Source of the DNA: an uncultured virus (IMG/VR IMGVR_UViG_3300005253_000164)
Taxonomy: Duplodnaviria > Heunggongvirae > Uroviricota > Caudoviricetes
Reading direction: 5' to 3' (one strand)
DNA length: 64,000 nt
IMG/VR virus record: IMGVR_UViG_3300005253_000164
Within the stretch, counting starts at the first letter, position 1, and each line of letters begins with the position of its first letter. Shown one piece after another: positions 1 through 62,755 of this stretch. The notes below the pieces were generated by a model, which had not been told where the DNA came from, did no database searches, and was given only the letters and a program-made list of their open reading frames with translations. The position numbers and the translations under genes are program-made.

Positions 1-77
1 CCTTATAGCAGTATATCGGTATTACAAAGCCAAATAGAACATAAACAAATCAGTGCCCTTTTATTCTCTCTCTGTCT

Positions 78-680
78 ATGTACTTTATGATGAGAAGAGT
101 ATTATTCTCTATTCTATTACTATCACTCATTATCCCTGTTAGTGGGATTACTGTAGTTGAGGTCGATTATGAGGATGGTGTTAGTCTAGCAAATTACGAT
201 TGGTATGAGGAAGTCATAACATTCACTTTTAGTTCTGTTTTATCTTCTGGTGATAAATATGCAGTTGGTGTTGGATTCGCTCGAATTGATGAAAGCTGTA
301 GTGAAAGTGTTGCAGATAATTATGACGAAGGTATTTATTTTACAATGAGTGAAGCTTCTGATATTGTAGAACACACATATATTGAGCTACTAGGGCTAAT
401 GGCAGATGAAACTACAACTGAGTCTGCAACAGATACATTTTTCGCAAGTGAACCAAATTATGTTTGGGATGCAGACAGCGACAGTCCATATTTTTGTGCT
501 ATGGTGGGTATAGTTTTCCTAACTCCAATTTCTCAAGTAACTATGAATGCTGCTGCAATAAAACTCCATCAATTTGAAGCTCCCAGTTTCTTTGCTTCCA
601 TGCCAGTATCTCCAATTCCAATATTTTTCGGATTTGTAACAATAGTGTTAATATATAGAAGAAAAGAAAACTTAAACTAA
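78..680 (+). CDS. Secreted acidic surface protein with C-terminal TM anchor and basic tail
   Basis: N-terminal signal peptide; C-terminus QFEAP...PIPIFFGFVTIVLIYRRK. Promoter motif spacing suggests the start is the ATG at 87. Confidence 0.75.
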   Translation: MYFMMRRVLFSILLLSLIIPVSGITVVEVDYEDGVSLANYDWYEEVITFTFSSVLSSGDKYAVGVGFARIDESCSESVADNYDEGIYFTMSEASDIVEHTYIELLGLMADETTTESATDTFFASEPNYVWDADSDSPYFCAMVGIVFLTPISQVTMNAAAIKLHQFEAPSFFASMPVSPIPIFFGFVTIVLIYRRKENLN

Positions 681-717
681 ACTTGTTCTTTTTATTTGGA
701 TTGGAATATTGTGATCT

Positions 718-1725
718 ATGAGAAATCGCACTCACAAACGAGTAGCAGACAAGAAGGTTTCCAATATCTCTGGAACAAAAAAACCAACAAATCATAAGAG
801 GAACGTAATCCATAGAAAATCAACGGAACCAAAAATCAAGATCTACAATAAAATCACTTTAAACAAGAAAGAAATAGATTTGATGTTTGCAGCACAAAAT
901 CAAGAGGCTGAATTTTTTGGTGCTATGGACTATGATCCTCTTTCCAAACATCCTTCAGTTATAAGATTAGAGCGAGGAGAGGAAAGTAAGGTGACACGCT
1001 TTGTGAAACGCATAGATGCGGATTATGAAATAGTTTTTCACACACATCCAATTCAACCATTGCCCACCGCCCATCTTGGTCCATCACCTGCCGATTTGTC
1101 AAATATGGCTTTTCGATCAGATGCAACTAAAATGAAACGAAATAAAGAATTTTTAGTTGAAAACGATGGGTTTCTTTACTCTTATTCAATCCCAGATAAA
1201 GCGAGTATGAAGACGTTTAATGATTCACTAAAGAATTTAGAGTATTTTTTAGTTAAAGAAGATAAAACATTATTCAAAGATATTCAGGATTCAGAGCTTG
1301 TGGATATAATTTATTTTGAGATCTGGGAAGAGGCACTTACTAATAACAAAAGTGGAGTTGGAGAGTTAAAGGAATATTTCAATGTTTACCAGAAATACCA
1401 GAATACAAATATTGATACATTTAAACTGTCAAAGCTATCACGAAAAGATAGGATGACAGTAACATCATATCAAAAGAAATTCCCCAAAATTCAAAAAGAA
1501 TTATTCGCAAAATTAGAACAAGAACTTGGTATAGTTATTAAAAAACATCCCAGAGATAAAAATATAAAAACTTATTTAGAAGTTCAGCATAATCCAATGC
1601 GAAAAGGAAGATCCAATCCTCAAAAAAGAGCAAAGAGAATCGCACAGGCAATTGTCTCAAACCCTTCTTATTTTGAAAAGAAAATGCAGAGAGATGCAAA
1701 ACGCATACTTAAAAATCATAAATAG
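718..1725 (+). CDS. JAB/MPN (JAMM)-like metalloprotease with basic N-terminal leader
   Basis: E(FFG)...IVFHTHP-x11-SPAD resembles the JAMM motif E...HxH...SxxD. Confidence 0.6.
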   Translation: MRNRTHKRVADKKVSNISGTKKPTNHKRNVIHRKSTEPKIKIYNKITLNKKEIDLMFAAQNQEAEFFGAMDYDPLSKHPSVIRLERGEESKVTRFVKRIDADYEIVFHTHPIQPLPTAHLGPSPADLSNMAFRSDATKMKRNKEFLVENDGFLYSYSIPDKASMKTFNDSLKNLEYFLVKEDKTLFKDIQDSELVDIIYFEIWEEALTNNKSGVGELKEYFNVYQKYQNTNIDTFKLSKLSRKDRMTVTSYQKKFPKIQKELFAKLEQELGIVIKKHPRDKNIKTYLEVQHNPMRKGRSNPQKRAKRIAQAIVSNPSYFEKKMQRDAKRILKNHK

Positions 1726-1782
1726 AATAAAAACTTAAACCAAACTTTTAATTTATAATACCAATTAGGAATAGGTGATTAT

Positions 1783-2430
1783 ATGGTTAATGGTTCTCAT
1801 AAGAAAAGTCGTTCTCATAAGAGAGTTGCCTCAACGGAGAAGGTTTCTAATATATCTGGAACATCCAACAAAACAAACCAAAATCGAAATATCAAACGCA
1901 AAGTGACACATCGGTTATCAAATTCTCAAAAATATTATGTTATGAGTCTTGAAGAAGGTATAAAGAAAAAATATAAAAAATTTAGAAGAACAAACTCACA
2001 GAAGGATTTTGTAGACTATCAAATGGCAATAGTTCAAGCAAAAGAATTTTATTCTCAAAAAGGACTAACAAGAAAAGATTATCAAGAAATAGATGACATT
2101 CAATTAGAAACGAGTGTCGCCCACTATTATCTCAATGAAAAACAAACAGAAATATTGTTTGATTTGGAAATTGCAATAGTAAGACGTAGAGATAGATATG
2201 AACGCTCTCCAAGTAAAACTCAATTTAGGAAATTAGAGCGACTTATCCAGCACAGAGATAGATTTCTAGCAAATGCAAATAATATTGAAGATGAAGATGA
2301 AGAAGTAGCCATGGTTCAAAAATTGGTAGCTGATAACTCGAAAGTTATTAAAGCACTTTATCTTGAAAAAGAAGATGAAAGAAAAAATAAAGAAAATGAA
2401 AGAAAAAGATATAATATTGAAAATGCTTAA
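1783..2430 (+). CDS. Hypothetical helical protein sharing the N-terminal leader of 718..1725
   Basis: HKRVA..KVSNISGT leader; GGTGA RBS. Confidence 0.7.
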   Translation: MVNGSHKKSRSHKRVASTEKVSNISGTSNKTNQNRNIKRKVTHRLSNSQKYYVMSLEEGIKKKYKKFRRTNSQKDFVDYQMAIVQAKEFYSQKGLTRKDYQEIDDIQLETSVAHYYLNEKQTEILFDLEIAIVRRRDRYERSPSKTQFRKLERLIQHRDRFLANANNIEDEDEEVAMVQKLVADNSKVIKALYLEKEDERKNKENERKRYNIENA

Positions 2431-2828
2431 ATATCATTAATAGAATGTTTATTCATTATCTCGTCTAGTTCTTCTTTAGAAAATTTAGAGTAATATGCTA
2501 TTTTAATTGCATTCCAATCTGCTTGGATTAGGTAGGCATCTAATGTTGCTGATGAGAATGATTTTTTAATATCTTTCTTGAAATAACCAATCTTATCCAG
2601 GATATATCCAATTGATCCAAACACAAATAAAATGATTGTAAATCCAAGTAAAGTCTCATTTATAGATAATCCCACACCAGTAACACCAAGGAAAATTAAG
2701 AAATATAGAAAGGTGTTTAATATTCCAACCAGAGGTAATATTTGAATATATGTTTGAGCGATTCTCCATCGTTGTCTAACAATGAAATTAATGGCCTTAT
2801 CCTTAAAGTTCAATGATACCATCCTCAA
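2427..2828 (-). CDS. Small membrane protein with 2 TM segments
   Basis: Two hydrophobic segments; overlaps the end of the upstream glycosyltransferase. Confidence 0.65.
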   Translation of the reverse strand: MRMVSLNFKDKAINFIVRQRWRIAQTYIQILPLVGILNTFLYFLIFLGVTGVGLSINETLLGFTIILFVFGSIGYILDKIGYFKKDIKKSFSSATLDAYLIQADWNAIKIAYYSKFSKEELDEIMNKHSINDI

Positions 2829-3696
2829 TTAGTGTATACAGTGTTTTTTCTCCACTGTGATGTTCTTTAACATAAGCCCTATGAGTTAATTGATTTCCTT
2901 TGTATGAATCAAAATCTATCCCATTTTCATCTATCTGAACACAATGATCAAACAGTTTATCATCTTCAATTCCATCTTCTCTTAGGTGAACAATTGGGGT
3001 GACATTCATTGCTAATGCCTCCAATCCAATTACTCCGATCCCACCGTATTTTGGCTTATACTGATCTAAAATTAAATCACATCTTTGAAGAAATCTGGGC
3101 ATGAGTGCATGGGGAATATGTCCAGTCTCATTAGTGATGATTTCAATATCAAATTTAGTTTTGGTTTTCTTTAACATTTTCATCATCTTAATGGTTCCCT
3201 CTGACTTCTCTCCAGAAGATGGAAAAACACCAACAACTAATTTTTCTGTTGGTTTAATCTCAAATGGAGGTGGCTTGAATAGTTCAAGGTCCACTATTCT
3301 ATGCAACAAAGTAAAATAAGCAGAGGTATCAAGCTTTAGCATATCTGGTGTGGAACAATATTGTTTGTGAGAATAATTTCTAGGTGAGAAAAATCGTTCT
3401 CTAATATCGCTCCCATGCCACCAGATAATCGTTTTATCAGCTTTATTGTATGAATGCGGGACTGCATTAAGTATTTCCAGATCTGTTTTGAATAATTTCG
3501 AATATATTGCTTTCTTAAATTTTCGAGAAAAGGGAATTCCCAACGTCTTTCCAATATTAACATATCTATCTGGATAATCGATTAGATCTGTATTTTTGGT
3601 TATGAAATATTTGACATCTGCATCCAAGGTTTTGTGCAACACTCTTCCCAGATTCATACCTTGTGAGGCTGTATTATTAATTATACTGACTTTCAT
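2803..3696 (-). CDS. GT-B (GT4-like) glycosyltransferase
   Basis: DLILDQ...GGIGVIGLEALAM C-terminal GT4-type motif; start MKVSII overlaps the upstream stop (ATGA). Confidence 0.7.
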   Translation of the reverse strand: MKVSIINNTASQGMNLGRVLHKTLDADVKYFITKNTDLIDYPDRYVNIGKTLGIPFSRKFKKAIYSKLFKTDLEILNAVPHSYNKADKTIIWWHGSDIRERFFSPRNYSHKQYCSTPDMLKLDTSAYFTLLHRIVDLELFKPPPFEIKPTEKLVVGVFPSSGEKSEGTIKMMKMLKKTKTKFDIEIITNETGHIPHALMPRFLQRCDLILDQYKPKYGGIGVIGLEALAMNVTPIVHLREDGIEDDKLFDHCVQIDENGIDFDSYKGNQLTHRAYVKEHHSGEKTLYTLIEDGIIEL

Positions 3697-4082: not shown

Positions 4083-4196
4083 CGATTACCACTATTAATG
4101 GATAATATATAATATCTGGTATGTTATTATTTGTAGTTTGACGATTAATAATAAAATGATATTTTTATATTCCAGAGAAGGAAAGGAATTAAATAA

Positions 4197-5303
4197 ATGA
4201 AAGTATTAGCAATTACTGGAACTAGACCACAGATAATCAAAATGGGGTTATTAATTAAGAAACTTCGGATAAAAGGACATAACGTATATCACGTAGATAC
4301 TGGACAACACTATGACAAGGAATTGTACGATGATATATATTCTTCTCTCAAATTTGAAAAACCAAATATAAATCTAGAAGTTGGATCCTCATCACATGCG
4401 ATTCAAACTGCAACAATGATGATGAAAATCGAAAAAATACTCCTCTGTAAAGAATTTGACGTTGTAATTGTTATTGGTGATACAAACACTACGTTAGCAG
4501 GTGCTTTAACCGCATCAAAAATGAATATCCCTGTTTGTCATTTGGAAGCAGGATTAAGAACTAACGATCTTGCTATGCCAGAGGAACTAAATAGAATTAT
4601 CGCAGATAATGTTTCTGATATACTGTTTGTTCCAACCACCCATGCACTACGTACTCTACTAGGGGAAAGCTTTGCAGATGAACGTCTAGAGATGCTTGGT
4701 GATACAAGCTATGATACAATACTTCATGCACATGATCTCTACGATCCAACATTAGATTTAATTGCGCAAGATATTCCTCAAAAATATTTCTTAGCAACAA
4801 TTCATCGACCTAGAAATACAGATGCCATTGAATCATTAAAAAAAATACTTTTTCTATTCAATACATTGTGTGAGCCTGTAATATTGCCTCTGCACCCACG
4901 AACAAGACAGGCAATGGTCCAATTCGGATTGAATGATAAGGAATACCCTAATATTCAATTTATTCAGCCAGTAGATTACATGCAAATGTTTTCGCTTATG
5001 AAGGGATGTCTTGCGATTTTAACTGATAGTGGTGGGATTCAAAAAGAGGCATATATGCACAAAAAACAATGCTTCACGCTTTTCCCTTCAACATCTTGGG
5101 TTGAAACTTTATTAAGTGGTGCAAATATTTTAGTAGATATAACAAATGACAATTCTATTAAGACTGTATTAAATACAGGAATAGAGCTTTCTGAAGGTAA
5201 ATCATTAGATGAGAAGATATTTCAACAAAAACTATTTGGTGATGGCCAGGCGACAGATAAAATTATCGAGTGTATTGAAAAAAGATACGGTGAAACAAAA
5301 TGA
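4197..5303 (+). CDS. wecB: UDP-N-acetylglucosamine 2-epimerase (non-hydrolysing)
   Basis: GTRPQ, TGQHYD, GDT, HLEAGLR, PEELNR and TDSGGIQKEA motifs. Confidence 0.92.
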   Translation: MKVLAITGTRPQIIKMGLLIKKLRIKGHNVYHVDTGQHYDKELYDDIYSSLKFEKPNINLEVGSSSHAIQTATMMMKIEKILLCKEFDVVIVIGDTNTTLAGALTASKMNIPVCHLEAGLRTNDLAMPEELNRIIADNVSDILFVPTTHALRTLLGESFADERLEMLGDTSYDTILHAHDLYDPTLDLIAQDIPQKYFLATIHRPRNTDAIESLKKILFLFNTLCEPVILPLHPRTRQAMVQFGLNDKEYPNIQFIQPVDYMQMFSLMKGCLAILTDSGGIQKEAYMHKKQCFTLFPSTSWVETLLSGANILVDITNDNSIKTVLNTGIELSEGKSLDEKIFQQKLFGDGQATDKIIECIEKRYGETK

Positions 5304-6454
5304 ATAAATTATCTAAGGATCTTAAAATTTTACATTTTAGTAAGATTATACCCGATGGTAGAGTAGAACGAATTGCTACTCTAGGAAATAGATTAGGATG
5401 TAAGTGCTATTTTGTAGGTAAAAAATTAGGTAAATCCGCATTAAACATAGATCCATTTATAGAAAAGTTCGAAGTCTCTATACGACCTATACATCTGGTT
5501 TTACCCGCATGGTCAAAACCCGCAGATGAGCTTAAAGAAGTTATTCTCAAAGTAAAACCCGATATAATTCATGCTCACGATATTCACTATTTCAAATTTG
5601 CTGAGATGGTTGTAAAATCTTTGAAACTTAATATTCCGATGGTTTATGATTCACATGAATATTGGTCATTGCAGATAAAACACAGGCGAGAAGGTATAAA
5701 ATATTATCTTAATCCTGTTAGGTTAACTTCTACTATATTACAAAGAATATTACTTCCCATCTGGGAAAAGAGATTTCTTAGAAAATATCCAGTAATTACA
5801 GTTTCAGAAAAAATTCGCAAGGAGTTTTTAAAGAAAAAAGGAAAGAACGTCTTTGTAATAAACAACATGCCACTCAAACAGGAAATAGATAACATCGAAT
5901 ATGATGATGTGCAAAGTCAAGATCAAGTTATATTATCCTATATAGGTTCGCCAGTAGATGAAGATGTTTCTATTTCATATAGGGATACAACTAAACTACT
6001 ACACCTGTTTAATGGGGATAATATAAATTCTAAATTATTAATTCTTGGAAGTGATCCGTCATTAACTGGGCGAAATATTGATAGTGTTGGAAAAGTAGAA
6101 CATAGTGAATGTATTCGTGTTTTGGCTAGATCACATATAGGTACTCAAGGATTTGAACCACACGAAGTTTTAGCATATTGTGATCCCAATAAAATATATC
6201 AATATGCTCATGCTGGACTATTAATTCTAATGCCACAAATAATGCTTGATAATAGTCTTAGTAGTTTAAAGGATATTTCGATTGGATATAATTCTCTCAC
6301 AGATACAGCAAATATTATAGAAAATAACAAAGATAGAATCTTAAAACATTCACACCAAAAGATAAGGCAATGGGCAAAAGAACACCTTATAATGGATAAA
6401 TTTCAAGAAACACTTGAATCTGTATATATATTAGCAAGAAGTAAAAATAAGTGA
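5300..6454 (+). CDS. GT4-family glycosyltransferase
   Basis: DGRV, PDIIHAHD, YDSHEYW, ITVSE and PNKIYQY motifs; ATGA coupling to wecB. Confidence 0.8.
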   Translation: MNKLSKDLKILHFSKIIPDGRVERIATLGNRLGCKCYFVGKKLGKSALNIDPFIEKFEVSIRPIHLVLPAWSKPADELKEVILKVKPDIIHAHDIHYFKFAEMVVKSLKLNIPMVYDSHEYWSLQIKHRREGIKYYLNPVRLTSTILQRILLPIWEKRFLRKYPVITVSEKIRKEFLKKKGKNVFVINNMPLKQEIDNIEYDDVQSQDQVILSYIGSPVDEDVSISYRDTTKLLHLFNGDNINSKLLILGSDPSLTGRNIDSVGKVEHSECIRVLARSHIGTQGFEPHEVLAYCDPNKIYQYAHAGLLILMPQIMLDNSLSSLKDISIGYNSLTDTANIIENNKDRILKHSHQKIRQWAKEHLIMDKFQETLESVYILARSKNK

Positions 6455-6524
6455 GAATAATAATTTATTTATTAAAACTTAAACCGACCAATTAGTTAAA
6501 ATAAAAACTTTGTAAATAGTAGTT

Positions 6525-9693: not shown

Positions 9694-9768
9694 CAATTTT
9701 CATCTCTTTCAGATCAATAATAGATCTTATACTGATACTTAATTGATCTTATTTAAATGACACTATGT

Positions 9769-9812
9769 TTTTGTGAACAAATCTTTCACAAATAATGGGA
9801 AACATTAAATAT
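9769..9812 (+). promoter_or_regulatory. Class-2 promoter: TTTTGTGAACAAATCTTT...TGGGAAAC-TATA
   Basis: Near-identical copies at 22567, 38283 and 11377-11394 (minus strand). Confidence 0.75.
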
Positions 9813-9837
9813 CAATATAATCATACAAATATTATCT

Positions 9838-11328: not shown

Positions 11329-11350
11329 ATAGTTTTTTATGCACACTGAA

Positions 11351-11394
11351 TTATATAATAGTTCCCACTATATGAAAAAGATTTGTTAACAAAA
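11351..11394 (-). promoter_or_regulatory. Class-2 promoter with perfect palindrome TTTGTTAACAAA between divergent genes
   Basis: Palindrome at 11382-11393, followed on the minus strand by GTGGGAAC and ATTATATAA. Confidence 0.75.
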
Positions 11395-11444
11395 TAATAT
11401 ATTTTATGAACAATATTTAATAGTCTTGATTACCACTTTAATTT

Positions 11445-14753: not shown

Positions 14754-15152
14754 ATGAATATTATAGAAAAAACAATGAATCGATTTAAACACAGAAATAC
14801 AACACAATATTATGAGGTTGATGGAGCTTTACCATTTAATCTTTTTATTCAAAAAAATTGGAGAAAAGGGGCTGATAGGTATTTATCTATTATCGTCATC
14901 CCACTTGTTTACAACAAACATAGTGGTGAAATGTGTATTGAGATAAAAACACCTTTTTGGAGGAGAACCAAAGGAATTAGTATACCTATTGAAATTAATA
15001 AACTCATCCAGAGGGATTTAGGAATACCTACAACCATTGCCAGAGGAGATGGTCGCTTATTTGCTGATCTTCATGGTATATCAATAATAGTTGAATCAAA
15101 TGAGTATGACTATATCAAAAAAATATATCAAAAAAGCAGAGACTGGAAGTGA
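14754..15152 (+). CDS. Hypothetical protein, tandem paralog A
   Basis: Shares DG.LPF.LFI, IPLVYN..SGEM, KTPFWR and SIIVESNEYD with the next gene. Confidence 0.75.
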   Translation: MNIIEKTMNRFKHRNTTQYYEVDGALPFNLFIQKNWRKGADRYLSIIVIPLVYNKHSGEMCIEIKTPFWRRTKGISIPIEINKLIQRDLGIPTTIARGDGRLFADLHGISIIVESNEYDYIKKIYQKSRDWK

Positions 15153-15156
15153 TATT

Positions 15157-15543
15157 ATGAGAACTAACGGATTAATTAAACAATTAAAGAACAAGAACAA
15201 ACAATATGGTGAAATTGATGGAACTTTACCATTCACTCTTTTCATTCTAAAATTCTGGCGGGATCACCCCTTTGAAAACTCTAAGAGACATTTAACAACT
15301 ACTATTATTCCTCTTGTTTATAATGCATATAGTGGTGAAATGTATATTAAAGTAAAAACGCCCTTTTGGAGAAAAAACAAAGGAGTTCCTGTGCCTTTTA
15401 AAATTCAGAAACTTATTCAGAAAAAGTTAGGGGGAATTCCTACAAAAATTATTCTGGAGAATACTTTATTAGCTGAGGGGACATCAATAATAGTTGAATC
15501 AAATGAGTATGACGATATTTTGGAACTACTGAAGGTGATCTAA
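15157..15543 (+). CDS. Hypothetical protein, tandem paralog B
   Basis: Same GAAGTGATATTATG start context as paralog A. Confidence 0.75.
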   Translation: MRTNGLIKQLKNKNKQYGEIDGTLPFTLFILKFWRDHPFENSKRHLTTTIIPLVYNAYSGEMYIKVKTPFWRKNKGVPVPFKIQKLIQKKLGGIPTKIILENTLLAEGTSIIVESNEYDDILELLKVI

Positions 15544-16519: not shown

Positions 16520-16541
16520 ATAGTTGACATATTTTTTAAAT

Positions 16542-16569
16542 CATAAACAATTCTAAGAAGTTATATATT
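16542..16569 (+). promoter_or_regulatory. 28-bp promoter identical to 36324-36351
   Basis: CATAAACAATTCTAAGAAGTTATATATT at both sites. Confidence 0.85.
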
Positions 16570-16589
16570 AAATATTTTAAATCAAACTT

Positions 16590-22518: not shown

Positions 22519-22634
22519 TCTCCAATATAAATTATATGTAATAAATATTGTTTAAAATTAAGATTATTTTGTGAACAAATCTTTTATAGGTCGTGACAAA
22601 CATTATATATTTTAACACTGATAAGAAATTCAGA

Positions 22635-23647: not shown

Positions 23648-25621
23648 ATGACTAATATAGAATGGACAGAAAAAACCCTAAACGTAACTGCAGGCTGTAG
23701 TAAGATTTCTGAAGGCTGTAAAAACTGTTACGCTGAAAAGATGCATAATAATAGACTATTGAATGCGGGACAACCAAAATATCAGCAACCATTTAATGTG
23801 ATAGTTGAACATCGTAGTGGTAAAGGAACAATGCAATCAATATTCGATGAGATCTGGAATAGGAAGAAACCAACAATATATTTTGTCAATTCAATGTCTG
23901 ATCTATTTCACGAAGAAGTATCAATGGATTGGATCTATACCACAATGCATAATCTTATGTCTAACAATCAACACATCTTCCAGATATTGACTAAACGACC
24001 AGAAGGAATTCTGGAATATGAAAAATCAACTCATGACACACTTATGGGACCAATTAAAGGCAAGGATCTTTGGTCGCCTAATATCTGGATGGGAACTTCA
24101 GTTGAGAACCAAAAAAGAGCAGATAAACGAATTCCTCATTTAATCAAAAGTTCCGCTCATCTAAAGTTTCTGTCCTGTGAACCCCTATTAGGACCTCTTG
24201 ATTTGAGTAAATATTTACCAGATCTAGATTGGGTGATAGTTGGTGGTGAATGTCTAACCAAAAATGCCCTCATTAGTACACCTAACGGATATAAACGCAT
24301 TTATGAATTATCAATTGGAGACAATGTTTATAGTTATGACGGTGAACTATATTCGGATGCATATAAAAAACCAACAACTAACATAAAAACCAAGATGATA
24401 ATTTCTAAAATAAAAAATAAAATGGAGAATGGAATAAAAGAGATCTTTGAATTAAAAACTAAAACAAGAACCATTCAAGCAAGTCAAAAGCATAAATTTT
24501 TGAGATTAAACATAAAACCAATTCAAATTGGATCTGAATTAATTCGACATGAATATAGTTTAGAATGGACCCAATTGAACGAATTAAAAAAAGGTGATTT
24601 CATTGTAATACAAAAATCAGCTCCAGAACAAAAAACTCCATTATTGATCTACACAGAAGATTTTATGAGAATTGTAGGTTTATTTATCGGAGACGGATGG
24701 ATCAGACTGAAAAGACACGAATTATCCTTTGCTATGAATACAGACAGTAATAATAGACTAAAATATATTCCACTACTTGAGAAAGAGTTTAAGAAAAAAA
24801 TTCATACAGATAAATCACAAATTCATATCTATGATAAAGAAATATCAAAACTATTTGATGATTTAGATTTGAATTACAAAGAACTTGAAAAACATATTCC
24901 CGATTGGGTGTGGCAATTACCAAAAAATCATAAGAAGTCTCTTATTGATGGATATCTTGATTCAGATGGGACAATAGATAATAGTAGAAAAAGTCCAACT
25001 TGGGTATTTGAAGCTAGAAATAAAACACTAATTGAAGAAATGTGGGCCCTCTGTCTGGATGTTGGATATCATGTCACAAGTATTCACTCAAGAGAAAGGA
25101 TAAGAGGAATTTGGAAAACCAAAAACAAGGATTACAATTATAATAAGCCAGTTACGAACTATTATTTTAAAGTTTCACATAATCGAATAGGCTATAAGGC
25201 AACATCGATTAGAAGTATAAGTCCTGTCCTCAAAGGCTTCTTACCAACTAATTTTGCTGTAGATCATATTCAATATATAAAACCAATAGGAAGTGAACTA
25301 ACATATGATTTAGAGATTGAAAACTCACATAACTATATAGCAAATGGTATTCTTGTACATAATTCTGGCACAAAAGCAAAAATTAGGGAATTTGATCTGG
25401 AATGGGCAAGAGATATTAGAATGCAATGTTTCAAATATTCAACTCCCTTCTTTTTCAAACAATCTGGTACTTTACTCCCATGTACAACAGAGGCACATAA
25501 AAAATGTAGTAAGAAAGGATGCACAGCAGACCCATGCAAGAATAGAAAACACAGGTCGTGTGGTGCTAAAGGTTGTACTTTTCTTGATGGGGTAAAATAC
25601 AAGGAGATGCCAAAGAGGTAA
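23648..25621 (+). CDS. Phage Gp37/Gp68 (DUF5131, radical-SAM-like) protein containing an intein
   Basis: TNIEWT, GCSKISEGCKNCYAE, FVNSMSDLFH, ILTKRP, FLSCEPLLG, WVIVGGE|SG and FFFKQ. Confidence 0.88.
   Translation: MTNIEWTEKTLNVTAGCSKISEGCKNCYAEKMHNNRLLNAGQPKYQQPFNVIVEHRSGKGTMQSIFDEIWNRKKPTIYFVNSMSDLFHEEVSMDWIYTTMHNLMSNNQHIFQILTKRPEGILEYEKSTHDTLMGPIKGKDLWSPNIWMGTSVENQKRADKRIPHLIKSSAHLKFLSCEPLLGPLDLSKYLPDLDWVIVGGECLTKNALISTPNGYKRIYELSIGDNVYSYDGELYSDAYKKPTTNIKTKMIISKIKNKMENGIKEIFELKTKTRTIQASQKHKFLRLNIKPIQIGSELIRHEYSLEWTQLNELKKGDFIVIQKSAPEQKTPLLIYTEDFMRIVGLFIGDGWIRLKRHELSFAMNTDSNNRLKYIPLLEKEFKKKIHTDKSQIHIYDKEISKLFDDLDLNYKELEKHIPDWVWQLPKNHKKSLIDGYLDSDGTIDNSRKSPTWVFEARNKTLIEEMWALCLDVGYHVTSIHSRERIRGIWKTKNKDYNYNKPVTNYYFKVSHNRIGYKATSIRSISPVLKGFLPTNFAVDHIQYIKPIGSELTYDLEIENSHNYIANGILVHNSGTKAKIREFDLEWARDIRMQCFKYSTPFFFKQSGTLLPCTTEAHKKCSKKGCTADPCKNRKHRSCGAKGCTFLDGVKYKEMPKR
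24251..25363 (+). mobile_element. Intein (371 aa) with LAGLIDADG homing endonuclease
   Basis: N-terminus CLTKNALI; GLFIGDG and GYLDSDG motifs; C-terminus YDLEIENSHNYIANGILVHN followed by Ser. Confidence 0.92.
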
Positions 25622-31792: not shown

Positions 31793-33151
31793 ATGCAAAA
31801 AACTAAACTGACAGGCAGTCTTGTCATAGGTCTTTTCATATTCGGTCTTTTTATGGCACCAACCGTTAGTAGTGGTGAAGCCTTAGTAAATGCCGCAGAC
31901 GATAGGTCTTTGTTTAAGAGTGCTGACTTACTAGCTAAATATAGCTATAATGCAACAGATATTTCTGGCACAGGAGAGATGTCATTCGGTATGGGTGGCT
32001 TCAACATCCATACTACAAATGTTGATCGTGCTAACGAATCCATAGGCGACTTAGGTGTGTCAAAGGGTGCTACTGCTGATGGGCGACCATCAGACTTTAA
32101 TATCACAGGCGGAATTGGAATGAGTTCCTCACTGTATAATGATCTGGTTGATACTCCTAAAGGTTTTGAAACTGCTTCAAGACTAGGAACATCAAGAGAT
32201 ATTGGTCAAATGGAAGACACTCAGTTGTCCACATTTGGTGAAGATGGAGCGTTCCAATACTTCGGTTATGAATCACTCAAAATGGAAGAGATTGAAGCTG
32301 AAATCGGTCAAAGTTGGGATAATGATTGGGGTGTTGCAGATATTGATATTACTGCAATTTACCTAAGATACCAATTGGACCTTACCATTGCACAAGCAAT
32401 AGTAAATGATATTATCGGTCATGAGGATTATCAAGATTCAGAAACAACTGCAATGACTGAAACAGAACTTGCAAATGTTATTGAGGAAACCCTTCCAGAA
32501 CACCTTGGTGGTATACTGTTGGGTTACGCTAATCTAACAGAATTAAATGAGGCCAGTGGTAAATCTACATTTACTGCTACAACAGAGATTGCAGACACAT
32601 TCGATGACAGCAATGTCAACGATACTGACAACACGCTAACCTCATTCGAAACTGGAACCACTTTCATGACTCTTGCCCTAATCTCCTACTTAATGGAAAT
32701 TGGAGTAGAAACATTAGATGCCACTGCCGCACTATTAACTCCTGGTGACTTCATCGTTCTCGATAATGTAGGAAGAGGTAATTTTGTAGGTGCAAGATTA
32801 GTATACGGTGAAAACGGAGCAGAAGTTGAAGTCGCTCAAGACACCAGCTCAATTCTTGCAACAACTGCGAACCTTACAAGAGGTTATGTAGCAACCATTT
32901 TCAGTTGGTTTGGATATGAAGTTCCCCCAGATGTAATCCCTTGGATTCCATTATTCCTCTTATTCGTATTTATTAACTTATTTACGACATGGGCAATGGG
33001 TATGATTGTTAAAGATCATGCTAAAGGTTCATGGAGAAAGGGTAACATTGAAGCCTACTACGAGTGGGTTGGCAAGAAAGGATCCAACATGTTCACTCTC
33101 CTTATCAATTGGGGACTGCCAATCTGGATGCTAGCTGCATATTTCTTCTAG
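31793..33151 (+). CDS. Putative major envelope/surface glycoprotein
   Basis: Signal peptide, acidic ectodomain with sequons, two C-terminal TM segments; structured leader; visibly more C-ending codons than neighbours. Confidence 0.65.
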   Translation: MQKTKLTGSLVIGLFIFGLFMAPTVSSGEALVNAADDRSLFKSADLLAKYSYNATDISGTGEMSFGMGGFNIHTTNVDRANESIGDLGVSKGATADGRPSDFNITGGIGMSSSLYNDLVDTPKGFETASRLGTSRDIGQMEDTQLSTFGEDGAFQYFGYESLKMEEIEAEIGQSWDNDWGVADIDITAIYLRYQLDLTIAQAIVNDIIGHEDYQDSETTAMTETELANVIEETLPEHLGGILLGYANLTELNEASGKSTFTATTEIADTFDDSNVNDTDNTLTSFETGTTFMTLALISYLMEIGVETLDATAALLTPGDFIVLDNVGRGNFVGARLVYGENGAEVEVAQDTSSILATTANLTRGYVATIFSWFGYEVPPDVIPWIPLFLLFVFINLFTTWAMGMIVKDHAKGSWRKGNIEAYYEWVGKKGSNMFTLLINWGLPIWMLAAYFF

Positions 33152-33165
33152 GAGCGTAATTAAAG

Positions 33166-33489
33166 ATGGTTGAATTTCTTGATTGGCTTTCCTTGAATAC
33201 ATGGATTTTATGGACAGCAGGTGGATTATTAATCCTGCTGTTACTCCTCTGGAAAGGCAAAGTAATCGGTGAAAGATTATGGAGCATTGTATCAAACAAA
33301 AGCTTTGTAAAATTTCTCTTGATTTTTATCGGTGTTATAGTAATCCTTTCGGTAACTGTTATACCACTTGTTGGTCTTGCTAATCCCGATGCACCTCTTA
33401 TAAGCTCTATGGGCTTCCTTGATTGGTGGATGACAATGATTGGCATGGGCTATGCACAAATCTTAAGTTGGTTTTCTTCCAGCCCTTGA
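33166..33489 (+). CDS. Small hydrophobic membrane protein, paralog 1
   Basis: W-TAG, GLANPDA and F.D...G..Q shared with 33567. Confidence 0.7.
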   Translation: MVEFLDWLSLNTWILWTAGGLLILLLLLWKGKVIGERLWSIVSNKSFVKFLLIFIGVIVILSVTVIPLVGLANPDAPLISSMGFLDWWMTMIGMGYAQILSWFSSSP

Positions 33490-33566
33490 GAAACCGTCTC
33501 TAAATTATACTCACAAAAATCTAAACAAAACTCTTTATTTATAAAAACAAAAAACAATCTTAATCT

Positions 33567-33944
33567 ATGACAACAATCCAAGAATTCTTTGTTCTTTGGT
33601 ATACTGAATATGCATTTACCTTTTGGTTAACAGCAGGTATAGTCGTATTGCTTATTCCAATGTTATTTTGGGATTGGTATCGAGAACAAGTTGTCACATT
33701 CGCTGCAGAGCATGGTATAGCAATTTTAAAAGTAGGTGGGATTGGCTTAATTGTAGGTGCAGTACTTGCATTGCTGTTTTCATTAGGTATCGGGTTAATG
33801 CACCCAGATGCAGATTTTGTCTTAATGAAAGAAAACTTCTGGGACTTCCTTATTGATGTACTATCAATAGGATGGATCCAATTAACTGAAGTATGGTTTA
33901 TTGCGGCATGGGATTGGATTGTAGGATTATTTGGAGATGAATAA
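33567..33944 (+). CDS. Small hydrophobic membrane protein, paralog 2
   Basis: WLTAG, GLMHPDA, FWD...GWIQ. Confidence 0.7.
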   Translation: MTTIQEFFVLWYTEYAFTFWLTAGIVVLLIPMLFWDWYREQVVTFAAEHGIAILKVGGIGLIVGAVLALLFSLGIGLMHPDADFVLMKENFWDFLIDVLSIGWIQLTEVWFIAAWDWIVGLFGDE

Positions 33945-33946
33945 AA

Positions 33947-34864
33947 ATGAGTGTAGCTAAAATTAGTGCAACAGCAACATCAAAAGCAGGAACATATGCT
34001 ATAATCGGTTTCTTTTATGTTGCTAAATATGTGGCATTAGGAGTAATAATTATGGGTGTAATGATTGCAGTAGAATCTTGGTTGGCTAGCGATGTTGATC
34101 TGAGTTACTTCTGGAACCTTTATAATGTAATGATGGCTATGACTGCGATGGTGGCTTCCTTATTGAAAGGTATATGGTATGGTTTAGGATCCAATGATGT
34201 AGAGGCAGCATTTAATTGGACATTAACAGTTGCATCTGGTAAAGCAATGATCGGCCATTTAGCTGTATCAATACTGGATGTATTCTTTACTGCATTATTC
34301 GGATTTCTTAGAATAATGACCACTCTTTTTGGATTTTTCATGGATGACAGTGTTGTTGTAGTATCAAACTTGGGATTCAGACTTCCAGCCTCCTGTACTC
34401 CCGAAGGTTATCCAGATTGGGTATGGGGAGATGTAGTTTTTGTAAAGTGGTTATCTGATGGATTAAATACAGTATTTGATTTTAAATTATCAATCAATCA
34501 AGAAGTATGTGTTGGTGATCTAGTATTTGATTGGTTTGGAACGAACACATGTGCAACTTTCGCATGGGAATCGCCAACTGTGGGTGAATTAGTGCCAGAT
34601 TTCTACGCTACAGTACAAAGTTCATTGAACACATCATTTGTTCCAACATTTCTTTTTGATTGGTTAACTGGAGTATTTCAAGAAACTTTATCCTTTTTAT
34701 TTGGAGACTATTCTGGGAGAGATATATTTGGCCACCACTTCACTTTAGGATTCCAAAAATTAGAACATAATGCTGATGGATCTGCTATAACATCTGTTGG
34801 TTCTAAACCCTTTGAGACTTATATTTCAAGGAAAATGGCTCAAGGATTTGGGTGTCCAGCTTAA
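33947..34864 (+). CDS. Membrane protein with Cys-containing C-terminal domain
   Basis: Three N-terminal hydrophobic helices; four Cys. Confidence 0.7.
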   Translation: MSVAKISATATSKAGTYAIIGFFYVAKYVALGVIIMGVMIAVESWLASDVDLSYFWNLYNVMMAMTAMVASLLKGIWYGLGSNDVEAAFNWTLTVASGKAMIGHLAVSILDVFFTALFGFLRIMTTLFGFFMDDSVVVVSNLGFRLPASCTPEGYPDWVWGDVVFVKWLSDGLNTVFDFKLSINQEVCVGDLVFDWFGTNTCATFAWESPTVGELVPDFYATVQSSLNTSFVPTFLFDWLTGVFQETLSFLFGDYSGRDIFGHHFTLGFQKLEHNADGSAITSVGSKPFETYISRKMAQGFGCPA

Positions 34865-34880
34865 AGGAGAGAATTGAATT

Positions 34881-35327
34881 ATGGTAAAAAAATCATCTTG
34901 GCTTGAAAAATTAAATAAAATAATTTTTAGTAAAGAGACTTACAAAAAAATTGGTAAAATCATAGTCTTTTACTTTGCATTGATGGTAAGACCACATTTC
35001 CTTTGGTTTAAAAAACAATTAAAGATGGGTGATAAACCTATGAAACCTTTGCGAAAAATAGGACACTACTTCCTCTGGTTATTATTATTTTTTACATTCA
35101 CTATTTATCTTTACGTGGTATTTATTATCACAGCCTTGCTGATATTATTAATTACACAAATTTTGACAATTATTTCAATGCCTATTCTGATAGTAATCTC
35201 TGTTGTTATTATGTATAAATTCTACAAAATAATGTGGATGATTGGTGACAAGATTGATGATCAATTTATTGAAATGAGTGTAACATATAGAAAACATAAG
35301 AAAAAGCCTAGACGCTTACTGAAGTGA
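34881..35327 (+). CDS. Basic membrane protein
   Basis: Long hydrophobic hairpin flanked by Lys-rich ends. Confidence 0.7.
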   Translation: MVKKSSWLEKLNKIIFSKETYKKIGKIIVFYFALMVRPHFLWFKKQLKMGDKPMKPLRKIGHYFLWLLLFFTFTIYLYVVFIITALLILLITQILTIISMPILIVISVVIMYKFYKIMWMIGDKIDDQFIEMSVTYRKHKKKPRRLLK

Positions 35328-35331
35328 TTTT

Positions 35332-36321
35332 ATGGGTAGAAACAGTGGAAATAAAGAAAATTTTATATCGGTGATCCTTATTGGATTCGTGCTTGTCTTG
35401 ATGGCAATAGCATTCTTAGGACTTTGGAAGTTCAAAGGATTTATCGCAGAGGGAGAACTGTATAATGCATCTCTTCTGGGTTATGTTGGAGAAATATTAG
35501 CTGCACCACTTGCAAGATTTGTACATCTTTCAATGATCCCGATTATTATTGCTTTGTTAGCAGGGGTAATTGAGAAATTCCCTCTTGTTAGGAGAAAGAT
35601 GAAAAATAAGACTATTAGTCCTCTGAATCAATTACTTGCTACTTTTATTGCTTATACGATCCAGCTTGCACCTGCAGTTATAGGAATGAAAACAACAAAA
35701 GGAAACTTGATTTCACCAACTTGGTTGAGTGATCTGATTATGGTTCCTTGGGGATATGGTGCATTATCATTTGTATTCATAGCAAGCATGATTGTTGGTT
35801 TGCTCTATATTGTATTTGGGTTCTTTCTGGCAGAACAAAAAAAAGGAGAGGTAGATTATAAACCTCTGTTCTATTCAATTGGTATTATTTATCTATCAGT
35901 GATCTCATTCACAGGAGCAGGAAAGATGGTAGGCTTCTTAAGGGAATATGGGGTTACATCAATTGATGAATTTGTCCAGAGATACGATTTCATCTATTTA
36001 TTCTATGATGGTCCATTTACAAGGTATTCCAGACTTATTCTAATCCCCGCAATTGCTGGATCAATAGTCTTTATTTATACAGTTGTAATGAAAGATAAGA
36101 GTAAAATAAAAATTGCTCCAATCAGTAGGTTAAGTTTATTTGCATTTATAGTGATGCTACTTCAAATTGTTCCAGCAGTAGTAAATGGAACCAATCCGAC
36201 AGTCATTGTTGATGAAATAGTAAGTGAAGGTGGATATATTCTTCTCGCCCTGGCATACTTAGCAGGAATATTTATTGGTCTATATAGGTCGTTAACTGGA
36301 AATGTACTACATCAGAAATAA
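35332..36321 (+). CDS. Polytopic membrane protein (about 8 TM)
   Basis: Repeated hydrophobic segments; internal QLAPAV/QIVPAV repeat. Confidence 0.75.
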   Translation: MGRNSGNKENFISVILIGFVLVLMAIAFLGLWKFKGFIAEGELYNASLLGYVGEILAAPLARFVHLSMIPIIIALLAGVIEKFPLVRRKMKNKTISPLNQLLATFIAYTIQLAPAVIGMKTTKGNLISPTWLSDLIMVPWGYGALSFVFIASMIVGLLYIVFGFFLAEQKKGEVDYKPLFYSIGIIYLSVISFTGAGKMVGFLREYGVTSIDEFVQRYDFIYLFYDGPFTRYSRLILIPAIAGSIVFIYTVVMKDKSKIKIAPISRLSLFAFIVMLLQIVPAVVNGTNPTVIVDEIVSEGGYILLALAYLAGIFIGLYRSLTGNVLHQK

Positions 36322-36370
36322 AACATAAACAATTCTAAGAAGTTATATATTTAAAATTAAATTATATCTC

Positions 36371-36799
36371 ATGGCTATGAAAAAGTCACTACCAACAGGT
36401 CCATTACCCGCAGTTTTGTTAATATTCATAATTTTGGTTATTGATTACACTTACATTGCTTTTCTGGATCCAAGATGGGTTACCACAAATATAAGCATTG
36501 ATGTTATCGGAATTAATAAAGAACAGGCAGGATGGCAATTCATGTTTGGCTTCCTTTTTGGATTTATTGCAACCTTGATGATCGCTCTCTCACTTTTCTT
36601 GTTAGCAATTGTCTTTTCATTATTTTTGAAAAATGCTAAACACCCAAGTGCAAATAAGACCGACAGAATTTTCGCAATTTTATTGTATCTTACTATTCTA
36701 GTTTACTTTTTAATTGGGGCTTCAACAATACTAGGTTATTACGTCATAGGTGGTGTAGTAATCGCATTTGCGTTAATTTATTTCAAACTATTGAAGTGA
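36371..36799 (+). CDS. Membrane protein (3-4 TM)
   Basis: Hydrophobic segments; follows the duplicated 28-bp promoter. Confidence 0.7.
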   Translation: MAMKKSLPTGPLPAVLLIFIILVIDYTYIAFLDPRWVTTNISIDVIGINKEQAGWQFMFGFLFGFIATLMIALSLFLLAIVFSLFLKNAKHPSANKTDRIFAILLYLTILVYFLIGASTILGYYVIGGVVIAFALIYFKLLK

Positions 36800-36804
36800 T
36801 TTAA

Positions 36805-37332
36805 ATGGGTAAAAGAACTGCATATCAAATACGTGGGGGGATAGCTGTTAAAGCCAGATCCAGACACACAGTAGAATATGCAAAAAAGAATAAGAAAAGA
36901 ATTTACCTTGGTTTATTCATTTTTATTTTGATGATTTGTTTAATCTATTATCTCATTTCAAACATAACTCTAAATCCTAGGTTCGAATTATATATTGGAT
37001 ATATCAGACTACACTTGGCAAAAGTGTCTCCACTTGTTAGTATATTGGCTGCTATATCATTAGTACTACTCGCCTTTGGTGCAATCGGGACTCCCCCCCA
37101 TCCTGCAATATTTATTTTTGGATCTGGGATTACTCTTACTGCAATAATTCTGTTTTATTATGCAAATGATGTTTTAACAGGCAATATTGCCTTTCAAATC
37201 TTAGGTGTCGGATATTTAATTCTTGGTTTAACTTGGTTAGTTACAAGACGAGCCAAAGACAATATTGAAAGACATGGAATAATGATTTTGAGCGTATTAC
37301 TAGTAGTGAATTTTTTTGTTCTAAAAATATAA
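36805..37332 (+). CDS. Membrane protein (about 5 TM) with basic N-terminus
   Basis: Hydrophobic segments. Confidence 0.7.
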   Translation: MGKRTAYQIRGGIAVKARSRHTVEYAKKNKKRIYLGLFIFILMICLIYYLISNITLNPRFELYIGYIRLHLAKVSPLVSILAAISLVLLAFGAIGTPPHPAIFIFGSGITLTAIILFYYANDVLTGNIAFQILGVGYLILGLTWLVTRRAKDNIERHGIMILSVLLVVNFFVLKI

Positions 37333-37375
37333 ACAAAAACCGATATTTAAGAATGTAAATTGAATATGAACATAT

Positions 37376-38251
37376 ATGAAAAAATTCATTTTATTTTCTT
37401 TGTTAGCTTTATTATTTATAACATCTGTTTCTGGAGAACAACAATCACTACCAAAAACAGATATTATAAATTTAATAGTTGATGGTGGGACAACAGATAT
37501 ATCAGTTACAGTGGATGGTAATATGACACATGTTTGTCGTGCTATATTTGCATTAACATTTAATGATAACGCACTTGATGTTAATGCATATGGAAATGGT
37601 GCAAATGGAGTTCTTTCAACAGGTGTTGGAATGAAATATGATAATTATTTTCTGTTTGAAAAAAACATTACTAGAAATGGAGATTTCAGTCATTGGGCTT
37701 TTGATATAATCTATCAACAAGATGCAAAGAACCCAAAAGCCAATGTAATTACCTCTAGATTAAGTTTTAATAAATTCACAGAAGGTGGTGAATGTCTAGA
37801 TATTTCTGATGGTCGTGATCTGGAAATGACAATTGGTGACGACATGACTAATTCAACCTTTGCAGATGTTACAGAATTTTCAGTAACTTTTGAAGGATAC
37901 TTTGATCTGGGTTTAGGAGCAGGAGAGACACCTGTTTTGTTGGCAAATGTTGCAGGAGCAGTTTCTGGTCTTGGTGATTTTGCGATTGATATAAGTCCAG
38001 TCTTAATTATCTATTTCTTGGCTTATCCATTTTTATTATCCAAATATTATGATCCTAAAGATACAAAACGGAAAATCTTTGGAAAAGTAGCACTAATCGG
38101 GATCTTCTCATTGATCACTTCTTACATCTTCTTTGGATTGATTAGCTCATTCTTTACAAATCCAAATACTAGATTATTAATTTCGGCAGGAATATTTATG
38201 ATTGCAAATATTATTGGAACACTATTCTTTATGATGAAAAAAGGAAAATAA
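37376..38251 (+). CDS. Signal peptide plus beta-rich ectodomain plus 3 C-terminal TM
   Basis: MKKFILFSLL signal; C-terminal hydrophobic helices. Confidence 0.72.
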   Translation: MKKFILFSLLALLFITSVSGEQQSLPKTDIINLIVDGGTTDISVTVDGNMTHVCRAIFALTFNDNALDVNAYGNGANGVLSTGVGMKYDNYFLFEKNITRNGDFSHWAFDIIYQQDAKNPKANVITSRLSFNKFTEGGECLDISDGRDLEMTIGDDMTNSTFADVTEFSVTFEGYFDLGLGAGETPVLLANVAGAVSGLGDFAIDISPVLIIYFLAYPFLLSKYYDPKDTKRKIFGKVALIGIFSLITSYIFFGLISSFFTNPNTRLLISAGIFMIANIIGTLFFMMKKGK

Positions 38252-38347
38252 AAACATTTAAATTATCAGATTATTAATATGATTTTGTGAACAAATATTT
38301 TAGGTTTCGTGGGAAAGGTTATATTTTAGTAATTATAACAATAATAT

Positions 38348-62002: not shown

Positions 62003-62755
62003 GTGGAGCCAGAACTTCTCATTACGCATTTTTTCATTGGTTTTCTTGCTCTGGGTGTTGTCTTTCCTTATTTTTATAAGAAGAAACCTTCTGCCCCCAT
62101 TTTCCCCATTATAATATTAAGCTTCATAATTTCATATTTGGTTTATCTCTGGGCATTAGCATGGGAAACAAACGCAATGGTTGAATTCAATCAGATAATG
62201 GCACTAAAAGTTTCTGGGTTCGAAAAATATACTTGGTATTTTACATTGCTTGCTGCATCAATTGAAGAGCTAACAAAACTAGTAGGGCTTTTCATTCTGA
62301 TGCATCTGACAGTAAAAAATTACATAATTAAAGATAAAAAATATCCTCTTCCAACATTTGGTAAACTAGGAATAATATCTGCAATTCTTATAGGTGGTCT
62401 TTTCAGTTCTTATGAAAACCTGTTGTATGTAAAATATTCAACTTATCAAGAGAGTGTTGAAATTCTAATGGATCGAGTTATTGCTGGAGTTTTCTTTATC
62501 CATGTAACTGCTGTGTATATTAATTACTATTTTATTACTCATCATAAAAAATTCATCCCAATAGGAATAATACTTTCTATCATATTCCATGCGACCTACA
62601 ATTACCTTGTTTTTATGGCTATATTTGGTAGAACATCAGATTTCTACGCATGGTTATATGCATGGGGGACATTCTTCATAATTGTTTTCCTTCCGAATGG
62701 GGGTATAAATTCTATGAACCAATTAATAAAAAAATTTAAACAAAAACAAACCTAG
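62003..62755 (+). CDS. PrsW-family glutamic intramembrane protease
   Basis: IEELTK, FSSYEN, IH and FHATYN within a polytopic membrane protein. Confidence 0.8.
   Translation: MEPELLITHFFIGFLALGVVFPYFYKKKPSAPIFPIIILSFIISYLVYLWALAWETNAMVEFNQIMALKVSGFEKYTWYFTLLAASIEELTKLVGLFILMHLTVKNYIIKDKKYPLPTFGKLGIISAILIGGLFSSYENLLYVKYSTYQESVEILMDRVIAGVFFIHVTAVYINYYFITHHKKFIPIGIILSIIFHATYNYLVFMAIFGRTSDFYAWLYAWGTFFIIVFLPNGGINSMNQLIKKFKQKQT

Follow-up and report, generated by a model that had tools for sequence, protein, structure and literature searches.

A basic N-terminal leader common to a JAB-like protein and to an orphan protein of a repeat-flanked optional cassette in a probable Asgard-archaeal element

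Several described systems resemble, each in part, the locus analysed here. The T4 CTS of IPI-III (PMC9026906) is a short N-terminal peptide common to divergent and variable proteins of one element; in the available text of that paper it comprises the first 10 residues, is cut by gp21 within an HK97-type prohead, and is proposed as a means to load varied cargo. The PeSL cassettes of T4-type phages, according to the available part of PMC2839356, are repeated promoter-bearing segments flanking optional orphan genes that are gained and lost by recombination; they are non-coding, multi-copy and equipped with stem-loop terminators. MuF-type polymorphic toxins and polyvalent proteins (PMC5512222, PMC12226406, in the sections available) join a constant N-terminal trafficking part, which is a folded domain, to swappable C-terminal bodies. 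A Zn-protease-type motif characterizes both the Borg JAMM-fold putative deSAMPylases, which belong to an archaeal extrachromosomal element (PMC12660748), and CsRpn11/JAMM (PMC6043591), as these are presented in the accessible passages. Finally, wyrdviruses and enigmatic Asgard mobile elements, as described in the available portion of 10.1101/2021.07.29.453957, show the gene order adhesin, small block, ATPase, and a topoisomerase-VI-A-like gene.

In the window, that is, the whole stretch of 64,000 nucleotides that was analysed, two tandem plus-strand genes, A (718-1725) and B (1783-2430), have in common a basic N-terminal leader of about 30 aa. The comparisons reported below indicate that the leader motif is real and conserved; it belongs to a JAB-like family, as yet undescribed, of probable Asgard elements, and was swapped once onto an orphan protein in a repeat-flanked optional cassette. 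The features of the locus are the following (SD-like sites are scored against the consensus GGDGRD, from the available text of PMC5316973).

78-680, plus strand: upstream gene, whose 200-aa protein is hydrophobic in stretches at both termini; part of the near-identical block 82-2430
667-684, plus strand: upstream motif of A, an A-rich run with TTAAAC at 672-677, BRE/TATA-like; it overlaps the stop codon of gene 78-680
710-715, plus strand: SD-like TGTGAT of A, 5/6 to the consensus
718-1725, plus strand: gene A, 335 aa; the basic leader is followed by a JAB/JAMM-like domain, a helical region and, at the C-terminus, a basic tail with GR-x-NPQ
721-825, plus strand: leader of A, residues 2-36, core at 6-19
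1705-1728, plus strand: left 24-nt direct repeat, 21/24 identical to 2423-2446; its minus strand resembles the end of the convergent gene
1729-2446, plus strand: optional B cassette, 718 bp, with promoter-like motif, SD, gene B and end repeat; absent in a variant
1730-1747, plus strand: upstream motif of B, one base off that of A
1774-1779, plus strand: SD-like GGTGAT of B, 6/6 to the consensus
1783-2430, plus strand: gene B, 215 aa; orphan, highly charged body behind a leader whose shared part spans residues 8-42
2423-2446, plus strand: right 24-nt direct repeat, which shares bases with the convergent gene at the 3' end of the latter
2427-2822, minus strand: convergent gene, 131-aa hydrophobic protein, which closes the slot

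In an all-against-all BLASTP of the window ORFs of at least 40 aa, A and B pair with each other over the N-terminus only (53% over 43 columns, E 8e-6), and there is no third leader-bearing ORF in the window. The initial annotation had described two otherwise unrelated proteins sharing such a leader, and this description holds: both ORFs and both peptides are found at its coordinates, and the leader-versus-leader score of 89, over an aligned span of about 35 residues, was reached by 0/5000 shuffles (maximum 64). The body-versus-body score is 36, a value attained by 840/1000 shuffles, so that the two bodies are unrelated, although a weak likeness extends a few residues beyond the end point first given, to about A36. 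Full-length homology of A and B, which had been named as a possible objection, is ruled out by this body score, as far as sequence comparison goes, and chance likeness of the leaders by the shuffles together with the substitution bias described below. The core of the leader reads H-x-R-V ... K-x-S[NQ][IV][ST]G (residues 6-19 of A), and residues 1-40 of A have a net charge of +11.

It had also been observed that the codons of KVSNISGT differ only by tcc/tct and atc/ata, and that this pointed to selection on the peptide. The observation is correct and the conclusion is supported: the two sites taken alone give p=0.054, whereas the 28 aligned leader codons give pS=0.70 and pN=0.21 (Fisher p=4e-4, a somewhat flattering value, the alignment having been picked for peptide likeness). 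The differences fall 7/5/15 on the three codon positions, 11 of the 18 codons encoding the same residue differ silently, and the corrected dN/dS is about 0.12. The leader peptide is under purifying selection. A reading of N-I-S as an N-glycosylation sequon was dropped, since the A relative P0016 has Q at this position and the proteins lack signal peptides.

The similarity of the two genes begins upstream of their coding sequences. As previously pointed out, both are preceded by the same motif, AAAACTTAAACYAAACTT, which has exactly two occurrences (exact copies at 667-684 and 1730-1747), with two further matches at 3 mismatches. It consists of an A-run followed by TTAAAC, placed 41-48 bases ahead of either start, from which a GTGAT-type SD separates it. 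Archaeal promoters are described, in the part of PMC5316973 available, as a TTWTAW TATA box with a poly-A BRE and a GGDGRD SD; from this we infer that the motif may be an ordinary archaeal BRE/TATA-like promoter, the fit to the TATA box being 4/6 only. A sigma-70 scan has no bearing on archaeal promoters, and no terminator-like stem-loops (0 sites) were detected within 1-3000. The promoter-like motif reads as having travelled along with the 5' end. On the upstream side, P0005, a 95% relative of A, starts with MYFMM, the same five residues as gene 78-680 (window 78-92), as if this gene were a second optional cassette and the JAB-like gene of the P0005 strain lay directly behind the 78-680 start.

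Beyond its own 90% cluster, A has two known relatives, P0016 (32% identity) and a 316-aa protein of genome G045 (33%), and both of these distant orthologs retain the S[NQ][IV][ST]G core within a basic tail. P0016 starts H-x-R-V-x-x-K-K-x-S-Q-V-T-G, with 8/16 identities to A over leader residues 4-19 and 45/122 over the JAB-like core, and the A/P0016 leader score was reached by 7/5000 shuffles. In the G045 protein, the basic tail is 90 residues long and contains SNISG at positions 31-35; S[NQ][IV][ST]G had been defined as a pattern before this ortholog turned up, and 404 of 200000 shuffles of the tail produce it. Comparison of whole leaders with the G045 tail gives weak scores (161/5000 and 69/5000 shuffles), and the leader of B against that of P0016 is not significant (328/5000 shuffles). 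The leader is apparently older than the A/B pair, and the objection that it might not be conserved in relatives does not hold for P0016 and G045. The net charge of the leader tails ranges from +8 to +22, and the distance from the motif to the conserved Lys opening the domain is 20, 7 and about 54 residues across the ortholog groups, a variation such as a short linear motif would show if the basic tail is disordered. Compared with P0005, A has changes at 6/36 leader positions (including I17V and T20L) and at 10/296 body positions (p=0.004); this faster change would argue against a rigid signal.

The initial annotation had gone further and proposed a portable tag. What stands is that the leader occurs on an unrelated body and that its core is kept in distant orthologs of A; wide portability is unsupported, no third family having been found. 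Indeed, a profile of four leaders matched 3/602 candidates, all of them input clusters. Leader DNA patterns hit 25 metagenome loci, of which two are the present element and 23 are off-frame or internal chance matches; among the three viral loci hit none is real, two being chance matches of the same kinds and one lying out of frame in an unrelated ORF. Across 400 genomes of the Asgard phylum (that of G001) the leader profile gave no convincing new carrier: of 16 matches besides the input, 10 have internal stops and the 6 that were read show no clear N-terminal leader. Nor was a new carrier found on four contigs with ATPase relatives, or a second leader-bearing gene in the 18 kb of the G045 element. 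Leader profile A6 missed the known G045 leader, so that these blanks exclude close copies only. The leader seems to have moved at least once, onto an unrelated body; its portability would rest on this one swap, B being the only known non-JAB carrier.

As for protein A itself, which is single-copy in the window, E65, H108-T-H110, S123 and D126 make up a JAB/JAMM-like motif (E, HxH, S-x2-D), the residue pattern of JAB/JAMM enzymes. The five motif residues do not vary among A, P0005, P0016 and the G045 protein, and the same pattern is present in host Prok-JAB matches. No JAB family profile of Pfam, NCBIfam or PHROG matched A, and PF14464 gave no match on G045:C21. Alignment of the A family with 10 host JABs by hhalign gave a probability of 3.9% and E 0.011, over the motif only, with A ranking first among window ORFs at E 0.1. 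Two predicted models have pLDDT 37-38, and fold searches with them returned no match. The Atlas model (pTM 0.66) aligns with DUF4329-/RadC-like clusters at TM by query 0.32-0.42, all below the naming bar; the Atlas neighbours of A are viral and archaeal hypothetical clusters at 0.90-0.91, with JAB-type families further down. Viral JAB-like proteins are among these neighbours, as is one MuF-family cluster, and both are to be taken as leads only. We thus call A JAB-like at the level of the motif, family membership having no profile support.

The family is rare in the collections searched. A homolog search with A returned its own cluster only (1/1017 candidates), and a wider one gave 2 matches among 1.84 billion representatives. 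The G045 ortholog, recoverable by the core alone (tblastn, A 46-173, E 2.6e-9), is the sole carrier among the 400 genomes. No relative was found by viral-contig scans with A, A3, A9 and ATPase queries, nor by a genome-contig scan with the A3 query; the A9 query gave one additional weak C-terminal match over the 400 genomes, in G015. PDB sequence searches were uninformative, and searches of phage collections gave no match. At the other end of the protein, H-x-P-x(3)-G-R-x-N-P-Q-x-R (window 1591-1629, A residues 292-304) is kept in A and P0016 and absent in the G045 ortholog.

The association of a JAB-like domain with this leader raises the possibility, which we regard as improbable, that the leader is a cleavage mark, in line with a suggestion of the initial annotation: the JAMM-like domain of A would cut after the Gly of [IV][ST]G and so take off, as a maturation step, its own basic tail in cis and that of B in trans, or B would act as a decoy or regulator of A. 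In each of the three ortholog groups the motif accompanies the JAB-like domain. Its final Gly is invariant and what comes next varies (T, L, D, Y), and [IV][ST]G bears what we take to be a resemblance to SAMP1/MoaD tails, observations which would speak for such a role. JAMM proteases cut after Gly in ubiquitin/SAMP tails, according to the available text of PMC6043591; however, the same text has known JAMMs recognise a folded beta-grasp partner, the motif contains no Gly-Gly, and the protease activity of A is putative, RadC-type JABs being proposed to act on nucleic acid (PMC5512222, in the section available).

The organization of gene B is that of an optional load. The sole family match of its body is SHOCT_2 (residues 77-109), below the cut-off; a homolog search found its own cluster only (1/186 candidates), and a search of 83 genomes gave one match (E 0.003) within a 1992-aa frame, taken as chance. 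A variant devoid of B, in which 1728 is joined to 2447, is represented by one contig each in runs X1 and X2 of one study, X1 being possibly the run from which the window stems; the evidence consists of two loose contig ends, which exit at 1728 and continue with 16 letters unique to 2447. The X2 contig has 1148 bases, as does the P0004 contig, and the C-terminus expected from the 1728/2447 junction, NILKNH, is found in P0004 and also in P0005, which is more distant. An assembly artefact as the source of the tandem is unlikely, because L015 and L027 hold both genes and single X1 and X2 contigs span the B cassette. Both A and B end in the 24-nt repeat, of which no further copy at 18/24 or better exists in the window, and the left copy looks like a remnant of the convergent gene. 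The block 82-2430 differs from that of L015 at 1/2349 bases and the next gene at 20/392, which suggests a recent exchange of the block. Promoter-like motif, SD, leader and 3' junction are common to A and B, and only their bodies differ; most simply, the two may be alternative loads of one slot, joined in tandem in this strain.

The same anatomy is compatible with a relic of 5' end capture, the main rival explanation, which we consider possible, on the unlikely side, and according to which the leader matters only for the JAB-like protein. An orphan body would have replaced the middle of a diverged JAB allele, with promoter, SD and first codons kept for expression, and the synonymous bias would have accrued while both leaders were on JAB proteins. 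Indeed, the shared DNA is continuous from the promoter into the leader and the 3' end is common too, all other leader carriers are JAB orthologs, B is optional and orphan, and a pairwise dN/dS cannot assign selection to the B branch after the fusion. On the other hand, B has an unbroken frame of 215 codons, with the entire core retained in its leader; the available copies of B are near identical (0/648 differences in L015), a similarity that cannot show decay either way.

A further issue concerns the nature of the element. The TnpB at 62792-63979 is closest to Heimdallarchaeota MAGs (12/30 loci, 50-52% identity), an affinity that suggests, and does not prove, a Heimdallarchaeia host; the window probably belongs to a large mobile element of Asgard archaea with such a host. 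Its genes include a glycosyltransferase, an epimerase, a methyltransferase, a topoisomerase-like gene (match at 11445), a subtilase, PrsW, a giant adhesin and many orphan membrane proteins. No capsid gene, head protease or known secretion gene was recognised within the 64 kb, and the small hydrophobic proteins at 33166, 33567 and 36371 have no family matches. The ATPase-like gene has weak relatives in 4/400 genomes, and on G023:C67 a homolog of the 3754-aa adhesin, a small gene block and the ATPase follow in the same order as in the window, the genes between adhesin and ATPase having no sequence likeness in the two.

Other features of the element were observed. In the region 41242-61962, the genes of two giant repeat proteins (LamG; NHL) are accompanied by a membrane block and by the ATPase-like gene, whose Walker A is degenerate; this may be the morphogenetic module of a large Asgard virus not described before, and eight orphan membrane proteins in a run behind the subtilase gene (31793-38251) are capsid or envelope candidates. 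An intergenic repeat with a TTTTGTGAACAAAT core, at 9759-9813, 22557-22611 and 38273-38327 on the plus strand and 11349-11422 on the minus strand, lies upstream of several genes and is probably another promoter or operator class; a second one, of 40 nt and 93% identical, is found at 16537-16576 and 36319-36358, 19.8 kb apart. The epimerase and glycosyltransferase block (4084-6462) is missing in L015, and the L027 epimerase breaks at window 4368 into other DNA. The DUF5131 gene at 23648-25621 contains an intein and a LAGLIDADG-like domain, and at 14754-15543 there are tandem paralogs, 53% identical, without family match. A PrsW-family intramembrane protease is present in both elements with a JAB-like gene (window 62003-62755; L062:3651-4013, on the G045 carrier, where it adjoins the JAB-like gene). 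Adjoining the ATPase module of G023:C67, the gene run L085:4503-7864 resembles what we presume to be a type IV CRISPR effector set.

The gene content bears on whether a particle is involved at all. If the element were plasmid-like or integrative, the leader might serve to bring A and B into contact with some host protein, or with the nucleoid, inside the same cell, a scenario to which we attach little weight. No capsid was recognised in the 64-kb window; the G045 carrier, an 18-kb contig, is flanked by integrases at both ends and has ParB, ParE-like and IrrE-like genes; and capsid-less Asgard elements with Topo mini-A are described in the available portion of 10.1101/2021.07.29.453957, a topoisomerase match being present here as well. 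Against this scenario, the adhesin-block-ATPase order resembles a module of extrusion-type viruses. At the opposite extreme stands a long shot, namely an Asgard budding virus with a divergent JAMM maturation protease, which would recognise a linear, ubiquitin-tail-like S[NQ][IV][ST]G site in its own basic DNA-tethering leader and in swappable cargo such as B, the cargo thereby being packaged with the genome and set free by the cut.

The explanation that we prefer, tentatively, is that a basic DNA-tethering tail combined with a short docking motif addresses A, and now B, to the nucleoprotein or particle of the element. The slot would open with the promoter-like motif and the SD, continue with the basic S[NQ][IV][ST]G leader and a variable body, and close at a fixed 3' junction with the convergent gene; B might come from the same slot of a related element, set behind A by recombination, or might be lost again via the 24-nt repeat. 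The Lys/Arg-rich tail would bind the element DNA and the S[NQ][IV][ST]G core would dock on an element protein, these two assumptions forming the weakest step. Both proteins might then accompany the genome into a transfer complex or a budding particle and take effect at an early stage in the next cell, A as a JAB-like Zn enzyme likely directed against host ubiquitin/SAMP marks or nucleic acid. In favour of tether and docking we count the selection on the peptide, the core kept in orthologs, the variable spacing, the B-less contigs, the 24-nt repeat and the element context, with the Atlas neighbours as leads; against them count the single non-JAB carrier, the leader changing faster than the body relative to P0005, the non-significant B/P0016 leader comparison, the absence of a recognised capsid or known secretion gene, the dissimilar middle genes of G023:C67, the motif-level assignment to JAB and the absence of a second leader gene in the 18 kb of the G045 element. 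The JAB/JAMM-like motif of A, the optional B cassette with its 3' repeat and the ordinary-promoter reading were missed by the initial annotation.

To our knowledge, most proteins of Asgard viruses and elements are without assigned role, and little is known of internal-protein loading by non-tailed archaeal viruses. If tether and docking hold true, a 30-residue tag found across elements, on a JAB-like enzyme and on an orphan, would be a sequence handle for delivered effectors, and a simple in vitro test could distinguish a mobile-element JAMM directed at host ubiquitin-like marks from one directed at its own cargo. If the leader of B is instead a relic, the locus would still be a clear example of orphan genes gaining promoter and leader by slot replacement. 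In titles and abstracts on Asgard viruses or mobile elements with JAB, JAMM or deubiquitinase, nothing on the A family is apparent. The main texts of PMC13700489, 10.64898/2026.08.12.739948 and PMC11529989, as far as available, contain neither JAB nor MPN (their supplementary annotation tables may list A), and in the passages found of 10.1101/2021.07.29.453957 "JAB" is part of accession numbers.

Compared with the systems introduced at the beginning, the element approaches the wyrdviruses and enigmatic Asgard elements in gene order, as judged from the available description in 10.1101/2021.07.29.453957, in its topoisomerase-like gene and in its Asgard link via TnpB; its contig of 150,989 bases is far larger than WyrdV1 (15.6 kb), and no spindle-type capsid protein was identified in 64 kb. 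As the Borg JAMMs may do, A might plausibly counter ubiquitin-like marks. It differs from host Prok-JAB L073 in having 10-23 residues between HxH and S-x2-D in its family (7 in L073), and a shared basic leader is not mentioned for Borg JAMMs or CsRpn11 in the available text of PMC12660748 and PMC6043591. As in MuF-type and polyvalent proteins, a constant N-terminus precedes exchangeable bodies; here, however, it amounts to about 30 residues on two bodies, with no evident immunity gene. The presence or absence of a repeat-flanked gene between relatives, typical of PeSLs, is seen in the B cassette, whereas the repeat has two copies, lacks a terminator-like stem-loop and runs into coding sequence under selection. 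Lastly, unlike the T4 CTS, the core lies at residues 15-36 in a basic tail and ends in Gly, and neither prohead nor head protease was recognised in 64 kb; by analogy, the leader would work like a T4 CTS without being one.
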